From: a virus
Length of the DNA stretch: 20,997 nt
Reading direction: 5' to 3' (one strand)
UHGV virus genome: UHGV-0209998
Both the position numbers and the translations under genes were made by a program. The notes under the pieces were generated by a model, which searched no databases, had not been told where the DNA came from, and saw only the letters and a program-made list of their open reading frames with translations. Within the stretch, counting starts at the first letter, position 1; every line of letters begins with the position of its first letter. Positions 1,975 to 14,373 of this stretch are shown here, piece after piece.

Positions 1975-4668
1975 AAAGAATTTTATATCTCTATCGAAAC
2001 AGTCGGAAATAACATTGTTGAGCGTTATATTGATGAAAACGGAAAGGAACGTACTCGTGAAGTAGAATATCTTCCGACTATGTTTAGGCATTGTAAGGAA
2101 GAGTCAAAATACAAAGACATCTATGGTAAAAATTGTGCTCCTCAAAAATTTCCATCAATGAAAGATGCACGAGACTGGATGAAGCGAATGGAAGACATCG
2201 GTCTCGAAGCTCTAGGTATGAACGATTTTAAACTCGCTTATATCAGTGATACATACGGTTCAGAAATTGTTTATGACCGAAAATTTGTTCGTGTAGCTAA
2301 CTGCGACATTGAGGTTACTGGTGATAAATTTCCTGACCCAATGAAAGCAGAATATGAAATTGATGCTATCACCCATTATGATTCAATTGACGATCGTTTT
2401 TACGTCTTTGATTTGTTGAATTCAATGTATGGTTCAGTATCAAAATGGGATGCAAAATTAGCTGCTAAGCTTGACTGTGAAGGTGGTGATGAAGTTCCTC
2501 AAGAAATTCTTGACCGAGTAATTTATATGCCATTTGATAATGAGCGTGATATGCTCATGGAATATATTAATCTCTGGGAACAGAAACGACCTGCTATTTT
2601 TACTGGTTGGAATATTGAGGGATTTGACGTTCCGTATATCATGAATCGTGTTAAAATGGTTCTCGGTGAACGTAGTATGAAACGCTTCTCTCCAATCGGT
2701 CGAGTAAAATCTAAACTAATTCAAAACATGTACGGTAGCAAAGAAATTTATTCTATTGATGGCGTATCTATTCTTGATTATTTAGATTTGTATAAGAAAT
2801 TCGCGTTTACTAATTTGCCGTCATTCTCTTTGGAATCAGTTGCTCAACATGAAACCAAAAAAGGTAAATTACCGTACGATGGTCCTATTAATAAACTTCG
2901 TGAGACTAATCATCAACGATACATTAGTTATAACATCATTGACGTAGAATCAGTTCAAGCAATCGATAAAATTCGTGGGTTTATCGATCTGGTTTTAAGT
3001 ATGTCTTATTACGCTAAAATGCCTTTTTCTGGTGTAATGAGTCCTATTAAAACTTGGGATGCTATTATTTTTAACTCATTGAAAGGTGAACATAAGGTTA
3101 TTCCTCAACAAGGTTCGCACGTTAAACAGAGTTTTCCAGGTGCATTTGTATTTGAACCTAAACCGATTGCTCGTCGATATATTATGAGTTTTGACTTAAC
3201 TTCTCTGTATCCGAGCATTATTCGTCAGGTTAACATTAGTCCTGAGACTATTCGTGGTCAGTTTAAAGTTCATCCAATTCATGAATATATCGCAGGAACA
3301 GCTCCTAAGCCAAGTGATGAGTATTCTTGTTCTCCGAATGGATGGATGTATGATAAGCATCAAGAAGGTATCATTCCAAAGGAAATCGCTAAAGTATTTT
3401 TCCAACGTAAAGACTGGAAAAAGAAAATGTTCGCCGAAGAAATGAATGCCGAAGCTATTAAAAAAATTATTATGAAAGGCGCAGGGACTTGTTCAACTAA
3501 ACCAGAAGTTGAACGATATGTTAAGTTCAATGATGATTTCTTAAATGAACTATCGAATTACACCGAATCTGTTCTTAATAGTTTGATTGAAGAATGTGAA
3601 AAAGCTGCTACACTTGCTAATACAAATCAGCTGAACCGTAAAATTCTTATTAACAGTCTTTATGGTGCTCTTGGTAATATTCATTTCCGTTACTATGATT
3701 TGCGAAATGCTACTGCTATCACAATTTTCGGCCAAGTTGGTATTCAGTGGATTGCTCGTAAAATTAATGAATATCTGAATAAAGTGTGTGGAACTAATGG
3801 TGAAGACTTCATCGCAGCTGGTGACACTGATTCGGTATATGTTTGTGTAGACAAAGTTATTGAAAAAGTAGGTCTTGACCGCTTTAAAGAACAAAATGAT
3901 TTAGTTGAATTCATGAATCAGTTCGGTAAGAAAAAGATGGAACCGATGATTGATGTTGCATATCGTGAGTTATGTGATTATATGAATAACCGCGAGCATC
4001 TGATGCATATGGACCGTGAAGCAATTTCTTGTCCTCCACTTGGTTCAAAGGGTGTCGGTGGTTTTTGGAAAGCGAAAAAGCGTTATGCTTTGAATGTTTA
4101 TGATATGGAAGATAAGCGATTTGCTGAACCACATCTAAAAATCATGGGTATGGAAACTCAACAGAGTTCAACACCAAAAGCAGTGCAAGAAGCTCTCGAA
4201 GAAAGTATTCGTCGTATTCTTCAGGAAGGTGAAGAGTCTGTCCAAGAATATTACAAGAACTTCGAGAAAGAATATCGTCAACTTGACTATAAAGTTATCG
4301 CTGAAGTAAAAACTGCGAACGATATAGCGAAATACGATGATAAAGGTTGGCCAGGATTTAAATGCCCGTTCCATATTCGTGGTGTGCTAACTTATCGTCG
4401 AGCTGTTAGTGGTTTAGGTGTAGCTCCAATTTTAGATGGAAATAAAGTAATGGTTCTTCCATTACGTGAAGGAAATCCATTTGGCGATAAGTGTATTGCT
4501 TGGCCATCTGGCACAGAACTTCCAAAGGAAATTCGTTCTGACGTACTGTCTTGGATTGACTACTCAACTTTGTTCCAAAAATCGTTTGTTAAACCACTTG
4601 CGGGTATGTGCGAATCAGCAGGTATGGACTATGAAGAAAAAGCTTCGTTAGACTTCCTGTTTGGCTGA
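1972..4668 (+). CDS. 43: DNA polymerase gp43 (family B, with 3'-5' exonuclease)
   Basis: 898 aa ORF. Exo I motif (VANCDIEV), polymerase motif A (DLTSLYPSII), motif C (AAGDTDSVYV) and KKRY (KAKKRYAL) are all visible. Near-identical to T4 gp43 as recalled. Confidence 0.97.
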   Translation: MKEFYISIETVGNNIVERYIDENGKERTREVEYLPTMFRHCKEESKYKDIYGKNCAPQKFPSMKDARDWMKRMEDIGLEALGMNDFKLAYISDTYGSEIVYDRKFVRVANCDIEVTGDKFPDPMKAEYEIDAITHYDSIDDRFYVFDLLNSMYGSVSKWDAKLAAKLDCEGGDEVPQEILDRVIYMPFDNERDMLMEYINLWEQKRPAIFTGWNIEGFDVPYIMNRVKMVLGERSMKRFSPIGRVKSKLIQNMYGSKEIYSIDGVSILDYLDLYKKFAFTNLPSFSLESVAQHETKKGKLPYDGPINKLRETNHQRYISYNIIDVESVQAIDKIRGFIDLVLSMSYYAKMPFSGVMSPIKTWDAIIFNSLKGEHKVIPQQGSHVKQSFPGAFVFEPKPIARRYIMSFDLTSLYPSIIRQVNISPETIRGQFKVHPIHEYIAGTAPKPSDEYSCSPNGWMYDKHQEGIIPKEIAKVFFQRKDWKKKMFAEEMNAEAIKKIIMKGAGTCSTKPEVERYVKFNDDFLNELSNYTESVLNSLIEECEKAATLANTNQLNRKILINSLYGALGNIHFRYYDLRNATAITIFGQVGIQWIARKINEYLNKVCGTNGEDFIAAGDTDSVYVCVDKVIEKVGLDRFKEQNDLVEFMNQFGKKKMEPMIDVAYRELCDYMNNREHLMHMDREAISCPPLGSKGVGGFWKAKKRYALNVYDMEDKRFAEPHLKIMGMETQQSSTPKAVQEALEESIRRILQEGEESVQEYYKNFEKEYRQLDYKVIAEVKTANDIAKYDDKGWPGFKCPFHIRGVLTYRRAVSGLGVAPILDGNKVMVLPLREGNPFGDKCIAWPSGTELPKEIRSDVLSWIDYSTLFQKSFVKPLAGMCESAGMDYEEKASLDFLFG

Positions 4669-4814: not shown

Positions 4815-4848
4815 ACAACTATCAACTGATACGGATTTGGAGAATAAA

Positions 4849-5085
4849 ATGAAAATTGTTTATGGTTGTTTAGCAATGTGTTTAGTTGCATTAGCAACTG
4901 TTCCATTTATTGATATTGAAAATGACACTCAGAATGTGATTGAATCTAATACTATTATTCACATGAATGGGAAAGTATCAACTAAAATTGGTGATAATCT
5001 TCATATGAATACTAACGGATCTTTAGGTGTTCAATTAGGGAATACATGTGTGAGCACTACAGGTGTAATTACTACTTGCATTTGA
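4849..5085 (+). CDS. Hypothetical secreted/membrane protein (78 aa), upstream of imm (imm.1 position)
   Basis: ATG at 4849 with GGAG 6 nt upstream; the track ORF start at 4837 is TTG. Hydrophobic N-terminus MKIVYGCLAMCLVALATVPF is signal-peptide or TM-like. Confidence 0.6.
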   Translation: MKIVYGCLAMCLVALATVPFIDIENDTQNVIESNTIIHMNGKVSTKIGDNLHMNTNGSLGVQLGNTCVSTTGVITTCI

Positions 5086-5095
5086 GGAAATTGTT

Positions 5096-5483: not shown

Positions 5484-5735
5484 ATGGAAACTTTAGTAGC
5501 AGGTTCAATTTTTATGGTTTTAGTTTCAGGCGTGTTGGCTATTATTATATACATGCTTCCATGGTTCATTGCCTTGATGCGTGGGTCAAAATCGACAGTA
5601 GGAATCTTTTTCACGTCTTTACTGTTTAACTGGTCAATTATCGGTTGGTTTATTACATTTATTTGGTCAATTGCTGGTGAAACTAAAAAGTCTGCACAGC
5701 CAAATCAGGTAATTATCATCAGAGAGAAAGAATGA
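5484..5735 (+). CDS. imm: Imm superinfection immunity membrane protein
   Basis: 83 aa with two predicted TM helices (METLVAGSIFMVLVSGVLAIIIYMLPWFIAL... and LLFNWSIIGWFITFIWSIAG). Size and position between 43 and 42 match T4 Imm. Confidence 0.8.
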   Translation: METLVAGSIFMVLVSGVLAIIIYMLPWFIALMRGSKSTVGIFFTSLLFNWSIIGWFITFIWSIAGETKKSAQPNQVIIIREKE

Positions 5736-5881
5736 AAAGCAAAATTATAGCAGTGTTGCTTTTAATCTTGATGGTTATAATAAGTATATACTATAGCGTA
5801 ACAGTTCCTGTTATGATTCCAACTCTTATCATAGGGTGGGGTTTATTACTGTTACAATTTAAATATGAATGCATCAATTGA
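5732..5881 (+). CDS. Small hydrophobic protein (49 aa), not in the supplied ORF track
   Basis: ATG at 5732 overlaps the imm stop (ATGA). Translation MKSKIIAVLLLILMVIISIYYSVTVPVMIPTLIIGWGLLLLQFKYECIN is almost entirely TM-like. It fills the gap to gene 42, whose ATG follows 8 nt later. Confidence 0.45.
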   Translation: MKSKIIAVLLLILMVIISIYYSVTVPVMIPTLIIGWGLLLLQFKYECIN

Positions 5882-5888
5882 GGTTTAA

Positions 5889-6629
5889 ATGATTAATGAC
5901 TCTATGACAGTTGAAGAAATCCGTCTTCATTTAGGACTTGCATTAAAGGAAAAAGATTTCGTAATTGATAAAACTGGTGTTAAAACTATTGAAATTATTG
6001 GCGCATCATTTGTAGCAGATGAACCCTTTATTTTTGGTGCTCTTAATGACGAATACATTCAGCGTGAACTTGAATGGTACAAGTCTCAAAGTCTGTTTGT
6101 TAAAGATATTCCAGGTGAAACACCAAAGATTTGGCAGCAGGTAGCATCTTCTAAAGGCGAAATTAACTCGAATTATGGTTGGGCTATTTGGTCAGAAGAT
6201 AACTATGCCCAGTATGATATGTGCTTAGCTGAACTTGGTCAAAATCCTGATTCTCGACGTGGTATCATGATTTATACTCGCCCATCTATGCAGTTTGACT
6301 ACAACAAAGACGGCATGTCAGATTTCATGTGTACTAATACAGTACAGTACCTGATTCGTGACAAGAAAATCAATGCAGTTGTTAGCATGCGCTCAAATGA
6401 CGTGGTCTTCGGATTCCGTAATGATTATGCATGGCAAAAATACGTACTAGATAAATTAGTATCTGATTTGAATGCAGGCGATTCAACTCGTCAGTATAAA
6501 GCAGGTTCTATTATATGGAATGTTGGAAGTCTTCATGTATATTCCCGTCATTTTTACTTGGTTGATCATTGGTGGAATACTGGCGAAACTCATATTATGA
6601 AAAAAGATTATAACGGTGAGTGGAAATGA
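5889..6629 (+). CDS. 42: dCMP hydroxymethylase gp42 (thymidylate synthase fold)
   Basis: 246 aa; sequence MINDSMTVEEIRLHLGLALKEKDF... matches T4 gp42 from memory; GAGG SD upstream. Confidence 0.93.
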   Translation: MINDSMTVEEIRLHLGLALKEKDFVIDKTGVKTIEIIGASFVADEPFIFGALNDEYIQRELEWYKSQSLFVKDIPGETPKIWQQVASSKGEINSNYGWAIWSEDNYAQYDMCLAELGQNPDSRRGIMIYTRPSMQFDYNKDGMSDFMCTNTVQYLIRDKKINAVVSMRSNDVVFGFRNDYAWQKYVLDKLVSDLNAGDSTRQYKAGSIIWNVGSLHVYSRHFYLVDHWWNTGETHIMKKDYNGEWK

Positions 6630-7468
6630 TTCAATTTGTAATTCCAAGCTATCAACGCGTAGGGGCAGTTTCTGCCCTTGATATGTTTCCGACTGATTAT
6701 GAACCTCATATCGTAGTACGTGAACATGAAGAAAAAGCTTATTATGACGCTTACGGGTCTAGAGCTAAAATTATAACCATTCCTGATGATGTAAATGGAA
6801 TTGCTGGAACTCGTAAAGCAATTACTGATATGTATGCAGGTCAACGAATCTGGATGATTGACGATGATACTACGATTCGTATGAGCTCAATGCGAAAAAG
6901 AGATGATCGTCGTTGTGTAGATAAAATTAATCAATTAACCCGTGAACAATTCTACGAATTAATTCAATACGCTGAAGATGCTATGGATTGTGGGTATTAT
7001 CACGGTCATGCTCGTTTACCAATTTTTAAAATTACTTCATCTTGGGGTAATTATCGTGAAAATTCATATGGATTCACGAATACATGGTATGACCTCGGAA
7101 AACTTACGACAGAACAAATTGGGTATGGAAAAATTGATTTATGCGAAGATATGTATGCATTTCTCAATTTAATTAATCAAGGTTATCCGCATTTGGCCTT
7201 GTTCAAATACCTGGTTGTATCTGGAAAAGCACAGGCTCCGGGTGGGTGTAGTTCAATTCGTAGTAATTCTAAACATAATAGAGCGCTTGAGCAAATTAAT
7301 AAAGAGTTTCCAGAGCAAGCTCGTTGGAAGACATCTAATATTGAAAAGCGAAAATCGTTGGGTGAAGAAGACGAGCCGTTAAAGGTTCTTCGTATGTGTG
7401 TTTCGCGTAAAGAAAAATCAGAAGCATTTCATAAGTTTAATGCTATTCATCCAATAGCAGTTGATTAA
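6626..7468 (+). CDS. Putative HMC-DNA glycosyltransferase (GT-A-like DxD protein), possibly the T2/T6-type beta-glucosyl-HMC alpha-glucosyltransferase
   Basis: ATG at 6626 overlaps the gene 42 stop (ATGA); the track start at 6620 is GTG. It occupies the locus where T4 has beta-gt but does not resemble T4 beta-gt as I recall it. Has a hydrophobic strand followed by DDD (RIWMIDDDTTI). The specific family call is inference. Confidence 0.55.
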   Translation: MIQFVIPSYQRVGAVSALDMFPTDYEPHIVVREHEEKAYYDAYGSRAKIITIPDDVNGIAGTRKAITDMYAGQRIWMIDDDTTIRMSSMRKRDDRRCVDKINQLTREQFYELIQYAEDAMDCGYYHGHARLPIFKITSSWGNYRENSYGFTNTWYDLGKLTTEQIGYGKIDLCEDMYAFLNLINQGYPHLALFKYLVVSGKAQAPGGCSSIRSNSKHNRALEQINKEFPEQARWKTSNIEKRKSLGEEDEPLKVLRMCVSRKEKSEAFHKFNAIHPIAVD

Positions 7469-7492
7469 TGCCTAAATTTATTGTGTTATAAT
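7469..7492 (+). promoter_or_regulatory. Candidate middle-type promoter upstream of uvsX
   Basis: Imperfect MotA-box-like TGCCTAA (7469-7475), 11 nt spacer, TATAAT (7487-7492). Weak, one mismatch to TGCTT. Confidence 0.3.
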
Positions 7493-7545
7493 TACTTTAT
7501 CTTTAACCAGTGAGGAAAATATAATGATGCCTATGGAAAAAATGA

Positions 7546-8727
7546 ATGTCTATTGCAGATTTAAAATCCCGTTTGATTAAAGCTTCCACTTCTAAAATGA
7601 CTGCTGAGTTGACTACATCTAAATTCTTTAATGAAAAGGATGTAATTCGCACAAAAATCCCAATGCTTAATATCGCTATTTCTGGTGCGATTGATGGTGG
7701 TATGCAGTCTGGTTTAACAATTTTTGCAGGTCCTTCTAAACACTTTAAATCAAATATGTCTTTGACTATGGTTGCAGCGTATTTGAACAAATATCCTGAC
7801 GCGGTTTGTCTATTTTATGATAGCGAATTTGGTATTACTCCAGCTTATTTGCGATCCATGGGTGTTGACCCGGAACGAGTAATTCATACGCCAATTCAGT
7901 CAGTTGAACAACTGAAAATTGATATGGTGAATCAGCTTGAAGCTATTGAGCGTGGTGAAAAGGTTATTGTTTTCATTGACTCAATTGGTAATATGGCTTC
8001 TAAGAAAGAAACGGAAGATGCCTTGAATGAAAAATCTGTGGCAGATATGACTCGTGCTAAATCGCTGAAGTCATTATTCCGTATTGTTACTCCTTATTTT
8101 AGTATTAAAAATATTCCATGCGTTGCGGTTAACCATACAATTGAAACAATTGAAATGTTTAGTAAAACCGTGATGACAGGTGGTACAGGCGTAATGTATT
8201 CGGCTGATACTGTATTCATTATCGGTAAGCGTCAGATTAAAGATGGTTCTGATCTTCAGGGGTATCAATTTGTTCTAAATGTAGAAAAATCTCGTACCGT
8301 TAAAGAAAAAAGTAAATTCTTTATTGATGTTAAATTTGACGGTGGTATCGATCCTTATTCTGGATTGTTAGATATGGCTCTAGAATTAGGATTTGTAGTA
8401 AAACCTAAAAATGGTTGGTATGCTCGTGAATTTCTTGATGAAGAAACTGGCGAGATGATTCGCGAAGAAAAATCTTGGCGTGCAAAAGATACCAACTGTA
8501 CTACATTCTGGGGTCCTTTATTTAAGCATCAACCATTCCGAGATGCTATTAAACGTGCTTATCAATTAGGTGCTATTGATAGTAATGAAATTGTTGAAGC
8601 TGAAGTTGATGAATTGATTAACTCAAAGGTTGAAAAATTTAAATCTCCAGAAAGTAAAAGTAAATCAGCAGCTGATTTAGAAACTGACCTAGATCAGTTA
8701 AGTGATATGGAAGAATTTAATGAATAA
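7546..8727 (+). CDS. uvsX: UvsX recombinase (RecA-like)
   Basis: 393 aa; Walker A GPSKHFKS; matches T4 UvsX from memory. First in-frame ATG after a TGA at 7543-7545. Confidence 0.95.
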   Translation: MSIADLKSRLIKASTSKMTAELTTSKFFNEKDVIRTKIPMLNIAISGAIDGGMQSGLTIFAGPSKHFKSNMSLTMVAAYLNKYPDAVCLFYDSEFGITPAYLRSMGVDPERVIHTPIQSVEQLKIDMVNQLEAIERGEKVIVFIDSIGNMASKKETEDALNEKSVADMTRAKSLKSLFRIVTPYFSIKNIPCVAVNHTIETIEMFSKTVMTGGTGVMYSADTVFIIGKRQIKDGSDLQGYQFVLNVEKSRTVKEKSKFFIDVKFDGGIDPYSGLLDMALELGFVVKPKNGWYAREFLDEETGEMIREEKSWRAKDTNCTTFWGPLFKHQPFRDAIKRAYQLGAIDSNEIVEAEVDELINSKVEKFKSPESKSKSAADLETDLDQLSDMEEFNE

Positions 8728-13186: not shown

Positions 13187-13383
13187 ATTAGCCCAACTAG
13201 AGCAAATGCTAAATCTACGAATGTATCAAGAGTAACTACTGGAATATTAACACCATGCGCAATTGCAATTGGTGATAAAATAAAGTTCCAGAGTAAAATT
13301 CCTACCATAGCAGAAATAGTAAAAGCTATACGCTTTTTATTACCTTTTATGGCATTGACAAGTGCCATTAATTTTTGTACCAT
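13183..13383 (-). CDS. Hypothetical small membrane protein (66 aa), antisense to all neighbours
   Basis: Only convincing minus-strand ORF in the window. Minus-strand AAGGAGG sits 4 nt before the ATG (complement of 13381-13383). Hydrophobic core AFTISAMVGILLWNFILSPIAIAHGV. Its 3' end overlaps the gene 61 stop by 4 nt. Confidence 0.5.
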   Translation of the reverse strand: MVQKLMALVNAIKGNKKRIAFTISAMVGILLWNFILSPIAIAHGVNIPVVTLDTFVDLAFALVGLI

Positions 13384-13392
13384 ATGTCCTCC

Positions 13393-13419
13393 TTATTGCT
13401 TTATATATTTATTGTATGA
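13393..13419 (+). promoter_or_regulatory. Candidate MotA-dependent middle promoter for gene 56
   Basis: MotA-box-like TTATTGCTTTA (13393-13403), 10 nt spacer, -10 TATGAT (13414-13419); about 40 nt upstream of the gene 56 ATG. Confidence 0.45.
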
Positions 13420-13455
13420 TTAATCTACTAACCCATGAATTGAAAGGAAAAAATA

Positions 13456-13974
13456 ATGGCTTACTTTAATGAATGTGCTCATTTGATCGAAGGTGTTGAT
13501 AAAGCAAATCGTGCATATGCTGAGAATATTATGCACAATATTGACCCACTGCAGGTTATGCTTGATATGCAACGGCATTTACAGATTCGTTTGGCTAACG
13601 ATAAACCAGAAACAAATCGTCATCCCGATTCACTTGAAACTGCGGGAGAAGTTCTTGCTTGGTTGCGAAACCAAGACGATTATATCGCAGACGAAACTCG
13701 CGAGCTATATACTTCTCTTGGCGGTATGAGTAATGGTGAAAAAGAAGCTTCTGCTGTATGGAAACCTTGGAAGAAACGTTATTCTGAAATGCAATCCAAA
13801 AAAATTCAAGATTTATCTCCCGAAGATCAGCTTGAAATTAAATTTGAACTTATTGACCAATTTCACTTTTTCATGAATAAATTCATTGCTCTTGGAATGT
13901 CAGCTGAAGAAATCTTTAAACTTTATTATCTGAAAAATGCTGAAAACTTCGCTCGTCAAGACCGAGGTTATTAA
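13456..13974 (+). CDS. 56: gp56 dCTPase/dUTPase (dCTP pyrophosphatase)
   Basis: 172 aa; sequence MAYFNECAHLIEGVDKA...EEIFKLYYLKNAENFARQDRGY matches T4 gp56 from memory, including the conserved C-terminus. Confidence 0.88.
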   Translation: MAYFNECAHLIEGVDKANRAYAENIMHNIDPLQVMLDMQRHLQIRLANDKPETNRHPDSLETAGEVLAWLRNQDDYIADETRELYTSLGGMSNGEKEASAVWKPWKKRYSEMQSKKIQDLSPEDQLEIKFELIDQFHFFMNKFIALGMSAEEIFKLYYLKNAENFARQDRGY

Positions 13975-14163: not shown

Positions 14164-14373
14164 ATGAAATTTGATTTCTACGCATGGCAAAAAGCCGGGA
14201 GACCGGCTACTCGAGCATTTGGTTCTGATGGATATAATATTAGAGCCCATTGGAAATTTAATGCTCCAGAAGATTATTCTCCGGTAATCATTAACGGCGA
14301 TGTTGTTATATTAACTAAAATCGGGTATTTTAACGTTCCGCGAGAATTTATTATAAATAATCATGTAATTTAA
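14164..14373 (+). CDS. Hypothetical protein (69 aa)
   Basis: ATG at 14164; no motif. Its 3' end contains the late-promoter box for soc. Confidence 0.55.
   Translation: MKFDFYAWQKAGRPATRAFGSDGYNIRAHWKFNAPEDYSPVIINGDVVILTKIGYFNVPREFIINNHVI
14353..14360 (+). promoter_or_regulatory. Late promoter box (TATAAATA) upstream of soc
   Basis: Exact TATAAATA at 14353-14360, 30 nt upstream of the soc ATG. I found no other exact copy near a gene start on a partial scan. Confidence 0.5.

Follow-up and report, generated by a model that had tools for sequence, protein, structure and literature searches.

Phages T2 and T6 lack beta-gt and carry the gene ba-gt (g-gt), whose product puts a beta-1,6-linked glucose on alpha-glucosyl-hmC; gentiobiosyl-hmC accounts for ~72% in T6 and ~5% in T2, with bare hmC at ~25% in both (PMC6024577; bioRxiv 10.64898/2026.02.25.707755). 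The T2/T6 enzyme has been equated with Pfam family PF20691 and makes gentiobiosyl-hmC (PMC13216743), and a T6 ba-gt deletion mutant has only alpha-glucosyl-hmC and greater sensitivity to Brig1 (PMC11078745). Most T-even-type phages have alpha-GT or beta-GT plus a TAGT, and the pairing of alpha-GT with beta-GT is found in six phages only, T4 among them (PMC13216743). TAGT and T4 beta-GT have been described as syntenic, and HPLC/MS found gentiobiosyl-hmC at ~40% or 67% of cytosines in Tequatrovirus phages carrying alpha-GT and TAGT (PMC13390438). Two papers of 2026 have already covered this gene, including its GT-A fold, a map position shared with T4 beta-gt and its prevalence, with alpha-GT plus TAGT as the arrangement of most phages (PMC13216743, PMC13390438).

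Organization of the region between gene 42 and uvsX

In T4, the interval between gene 42 and uvsX contains beta-gt (351 aa, NC_000866 24400-25455) followed by the homing endonuclease gene segA, of which the initial annotation makes no mention. The stretch of phage DNA analysed here (the window) is 20,997 nt in length, and the corresponding region of it has the following features:

5889-6629, + strand: gene 42, dCMP hydroxymethylase, source of the hmC that then becomes glucosylated (PF00303, E=8.7e-16; 94% nucleotide identity to T4 gene 42; annotated homologues)
6626-7468, + strand: ba-gt (g-gt, TAGT) coding sequence, putative beta-glucosyl-HMC-alpha-glucosyltransferase, 280 aa (ORF; T2/T6 identity; PF20691; PHROG 842; 475 records)
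6612-7557, no strand: cassette without DNA similarity to T4, replacing beta-gt and segA (T4 23556-25496; blastn of the window against T4)
7546-8727, + strand: uvsX recombinase, the downstream flank (PF21134 and PF00154, RecA and T4 UvsX C-terminal domain; T4 annotation)

The 280-aa ORF is intact and begins with ATG, and it contains the sequence RIWMIDDDTTI, described in the initial annotation, at residues 74-84. Its start codon overlaps the stop codon of gene 42, the product of which matches the thymidylate synthase family, in the tetranucleotide ATGA at 6626-6629, and uvsX begins 77 bases past its own stop. The annotations of JoYop, T2 and GiZh show this ATGA overlap as well. This arrangement suggests that ba-gt is co-transcribed with gene 42 and may be translationally coupled to it. 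Scanning of 5700-7700 for promoters and terminators gave counts not above those of shuffled sequence, and hence no evidence of a separate promoter for ba-gt. A GTG start two codons upstream (6620, giving 282 aa) was rejected as the annotated homologues all begin with ATG and MIQFVIPSY, and two antisense ORFs (6608-6844 and 6483-6647) were discarded as short and without support.

Two further observations were made in this region. A GC-rich hairpin of 9 bp, TAGGGGCAG-TTT-CTGCCCTTG, is located at 6660-6680, 34 nt inside the ba-gt coding sequence. T2, T6, GiZh, RB33 and JoYop all share it unchanged, whereas synonymous differences occur in the codons immediately before it, and its invariance may reflect coding constraint only (VGAVSAL). 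A 49-aa hydrophobic ORF (5732-5881) occupies the space from imm to gene 42; it has no Pfam match and is unannotated at that position in T4, T6 and JoYop.

Cassette replacement relative to T4

Comparison by blastn found 94-96% identity to T4 across genes 43 and 42 as far as position 6611, where homology ends; it restarts at 7558 and continues at 92% through uvsX, 40, 41 and 61. The replication genes flanking the site are therefore, at 92-96% DNA identity, near-identical to those of T4, in agreement with the initial annotation. The segment between the two breakpoints is 946 bp, versus 1941 bp for beta-gt plus segA in T4. Given the break in homology at 6612-7557, the difference from T4 at this site is a clean cassette replacement.

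Assignment to the T2/T6-type glucosyltransferase family

The 280-aa protein is 98% identical over its full length to the homologues of T2 (AP018813) and T6 (AP018814, MH550421), and 99% identical to that of JoYop; in all three phages the homologue occupies the same slot, between 42 and uvsX. It matches Pfam PF20691 (TAGT, "TET-associated glycosyltransferase") at 38.1 bits, above the gathering cut-off of 27.5, over profile positions 2-205 of 205, and PHROG 842 ("beta-glucosyl-HMC-alpha-glucosyltransferase") with E=3.9e-88. The product had been proposed to be a T2/T6-type second glucosyltransferase without similarity to T4 beta-gt, and both proposals were borne out. BLASTP against T4 beta-gt (351 aa) found no similarity (best E=3.3), nor did BLASTP against the alpha-gt of JoYop (PF11440; E=0.68), and the Pfam search of the protein matched neither PF09198 nor PF11440, while as controls T4 beta-gt scored 325 bits to PF09198 and JoYop alpha-gt 783 bits to PF11440. 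Neither outcome named in the initial annotation as refuting it, a significant alignment to T4 beta-gt or a profile search that detects no glycosyltransferase fold, was therefore seen. No matching model was found in NCBIfam and no solved relative by sequence search of the PDB; in a large protein collection just 11 relatives were found, each of them phage-like, the most distant at 29% identity. An arabinosyltransferase of the RB69/Mosigvirus type was also considered, and was set aside in view of the 98% identity to the T2/T6 glucosyltransferase and of LC-MS data for relatives, which show glucose, not arabinose.

From these sequence comparisons, 6626-7468 very probably encodes a T2/T6-type beta-glucosyl-HMC-alpha-glucosyltransferase (ba-gt), with a gentiobiosyl-hmC pattern predicted for the phage. 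With the T2/T6 genes it shares the length of 280 aa, the position and orientation between 42 and uvsX, the ATGA overlap and all conserved motifs. T2, T6 and JoYop have V where the window protein has I101 and A116, T2 has H where it has R11, and T6 has N, G and H where it has Y40, D55 and R106; these substitutions do not imply a functional difference. With T4 beta-gt (PF09198, GT-B, PDB 1JG7) the enzyme has in common the genomic slot, the UDP-glucose donor, inverting stereochemistry and a substrate of phage hmC DNA (PMC13216743), but the two are unrelated in sequence and differ in fold (GT-B versus predicted GT-A) and in acceptor, which is bare hmC for T4 beta-gt and alpha-glucosyl-hmC for ba-gt. 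The T4 cassette additionally includes segA, which the cassette of the window lacks.

The gene is an ordinary copy. By megablast it was found at ≥90% nucleotide identity in 475 phage records of Escherichia, Shigella, Yersinia, Salmonella and other Tequatrovirus phages, annotated as beta-glucosyl-HMC-alpha-glucosyltransferase, with JoYop the best match (98.6%), whereas T4 beta-gt DNA was found in 29 records only, mainly T4 itself and its laboratory derivatives. The arrangement is the common one in Tequatrovirus, and T4 is the exception. The initial annotation needs correction in weight only: what it singled out is common and already described, not unusual.

Conserved motifs and predicted fold

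A family alignment of nine full-length members, with identities down to 32%, was used to locate conserved motifs and to build an AlphaFold2 model. Four motifs were identified:

6641-6658, + strand: IPSYQR, aa 6-11, N-terminal strand-1/nucleotide-binding region typical of GT-A, with that role assigned tentatively (alignment; strand at residues 3-7 in the model)
6860-6868, + strand: DDD, aa 79-81, predicted DxD metal/UDP-sugar binding motif following the hydrophobic strand IWMI (invariant; strand at residues 74-77 in the model; GT-A matches)
7145-7150, + strand: E174-D175 (in CEDMYAF), analogous to the GT2 'ED' motif (D175 invariant in the alignment)
7238-7261, + strand: PGGCSSIR, aa 205-212, conserved motif (G206, G207, S209 and R212 invariant; low-confidence loop of the model)

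In the nine-sequence alignment, I6, P7, S8, Y9 and R11 of the first motif and D79, D80 and D81 (codons GAC GAT GAT, 6860-6868) are invariant. By analogy, D175 is a candidate catalytic base, and PGGCSSIR might, speculatively, form an acceptor or DNA-binding lid.

The AlphaFold2 model has a mean pLDDT of 74 and a pTM of 0.76, that is, moderate confidence, with three loops below a pLDDT of 50, including residues 193-211. On structural comparison it matches GT-A and not GT-B structures, with 8-17% identity in the structural alignments. The predicted fold is therefore GT-A with a DxD motif, which upholds the earlier description of the DDD as GT-A-like and agrees with the GT-A call made for the T6 enzyme using AlphaFold3, where it was placed as sister to GT2 (PMC13216743). 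Cellular GT2 enzymes of the GT-A fold (SpsA, TarS/TarP and the cellulose synthase catalytic domain) share with ba-gt the predicted fold, the DxD and an N-terminal strand of the IPxY type, and probably also an inverting, metal-dependent mechanism; they differ in their acceptors, which are polysaccharide, lipid or teichoic acid rather than a sugar on DNA, and only 8-17% of residues are identical. Only with inversion can UDP-alpha-glucose give rise to a beta linkage, in keeping with a probable DxD-containing, metal-dependent, GT2-like inverting enzyme.

Proposed pathway of DNA modification

Both hmC-pathway genes, 42 and 56, are present in the window, the latter as follows:

13456-13974, + strand: gene 56, dCTPase/dUTPase, which keeps unmodified C out of phage DNA, divergent allele (74.5% nucleotide identity to T4 gene 56)

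Orthology, family, predicted fold, synteny, the intact gene and motifs and the hmC genes come from the present analysis, whereas the literature is the source for the reaction catalysed, the pattern of modification and the consequences for defence. On this combined basis, gp42 would make hmC and gp56 remove dCTP. Once the DNA is replicated, its hmC would first receive an alpha-linked glucose from alpha-gt, the gene for which is expected upstream, outside the window, between genes 47 and 55; in JoYop, the closest relative, alpha-gt lies between 47 and 55 and matches PF11440 at 783 bits. The GT-A enzyme ba-gt would then bind UDP-glucose via its DxD and a divalent metal, and attach the glucose, with inversion, at the 6-OH of the sugar already alpha-linked to hmC, so that beta-1,6-glucosyl-alpha-glucosyl (gentiobiosyl) hmC is formed. 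The expected outcome is a T2/T6-like pattern consisting of unglucosylated hmC, alpha-glucosyl-hmC and gentiobiosyl-hmC, without beta-glucosyl-hmC.

How far the second glucosylation proceeds cannot be predicted from the gene being there: in T2, a gene of 98% identity goes with only ~5% gentiobiosyl-hmC. It is conceivable on this ground that the enzyme acts here at a low, T2-like level, so that the DNA would be essentially alpha-monoglucosylated and differ little in practice from that of a T4 beta-gt deletion, but we regard this as improbable. The window protein does not have the T2-specific R11H at an otherwise invariant residue, its DDD is intact, and sequenced relatives with LC-MS data hold 40-67% gentiobiosyl-hmC; these include the Durham phages Solly, TB37 and EL (from PMC13390438), which carry alpha-GT and TAGT and are among the matches of the window. 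The dam gene (GATC adenine methyltransferase) is also absent between 61 and 56 (13187-13455), its site in T4, where T4 homology skips from T4 17725 to 16805, and tblastn of T4 Dam found nothing in the window. Among the Durham phages, a group with about two-thirds gentiobiosyl-hmC lacks dam, versus a group that carries it (PMC13390438), and the high-gentiobiosyl phages Solly and TB37 resemble the window in this respect, although this is an association only. Because of R11, the intact DDD and the lack of dam shared with the high-gentiobiosyl group, we lean towards a high (T6-like) rather than a low (T2-like) level of gentiobiosylation.

It is very unlikely that the enzyme uses a different acceptor or donor from that of T2/T6, for instance by glycosylating hmC directly or transferring another sugar. 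Distant TAGTs do occur in phages without alpha-GT or beta-GT (PMC13216743), and the expected alpha-gt site falls outside the window; however, only 5-6 substitutions separate the protein from the characterised enzymes of T2 and T6 (98% identity), all of them outside the invariant columns, and the nearest genome, that of JoYop, has alpha-gt. We likewise give very little credence to the private substitutions (I101, A116), or an absence of alpha-gt elsewhere in the genome, leading to another acceptor or extent and so to a pattern unlike those of T2, T4 and T6. A highly diverged T4-type beta-gt of GT-B fold, which would have the map position alone in common with the window gene, can be dismissed with near certainty in view of the BLASTP and PF09198 results above and the match of the model to GT-A.

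With the T2/T6-type ba-gt as the favoured assignment, its significance lies in host defence, as the sugar borne by hmC determines which host defences a T-even phage can evade. Gentiobiosyl-hmC resists both the Brig1 glycosylase, which does not cut it (PMC11078745), and BapA, which does not deglucosylate it (bioRxiv 10.64898/2026.02.25.707755), and it is still recognised by GmrSD-family enzymes (PMC13216743, PMC13390438). It is therefore useful to know that ba-gt, and not T4 beta-gt, is present when predicting host range and the behaviour of the DNA with restriction enzymes and sequencing chemistries. The assignment itself is routine annotation, textbook-level for the field, and not a discovery.

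Variation in the T2 and T6 reference sequences

The R11H substitution in the IPSYQR motif of ba-gt (CGT to CAT; T2 AP018813 4093-4095, equivalent to window 6656-6658) was found in 8/8 T2/SV76 records. Across a 76-nt segment it is the single base difference between T2 and the nearest non-T2 phages, GiZh and RB33. R11H could be the cause of the low gentiobiosyl-hmC content of T2 (~5%, versus ~72% in T6), for which we consider it a candidate.

The two public T6 genomes have different lesions in ba-gt. In MH550421, codon 10 is changed from CAG to the amber codon TAG (at about 3951-3953, equivalent to window 6653-6655) and the gene is annotated from Met20; in AP018814, codon 10 is intact and one Asp of the DDD is missing (279 aa; equivalent to window 6860-6868). 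These differences may be due to laboratory-stock heterogeneity or to sequencing error. They concern users of T6 as a 'gentiobiosyl' reference; the gene in the window is itself intact.

Other differences from T4 in the window

Gene 56 forms a mosaic patch, its neighbours being 93-95% identical to T4 DNA versus 74.5% for gene 56 itself, and its product gave a weak match to PF08761, below the cut-off. The gene segF, which lies downstream of gene 56 in T4, is absent, and a 69-aa ORF (14164-14373) is found instead. Between gene 43 and imm.1, an 82-aa ORF is present at 4837-5085, with a TTG or an internal ATG as start. It has no counterpart in T4 (blastn found nothing for 4857-5095) and no Pfam match; it has a hydrophobic N-terminus and is annotated as a hypothetical protein in JoYop and T2.
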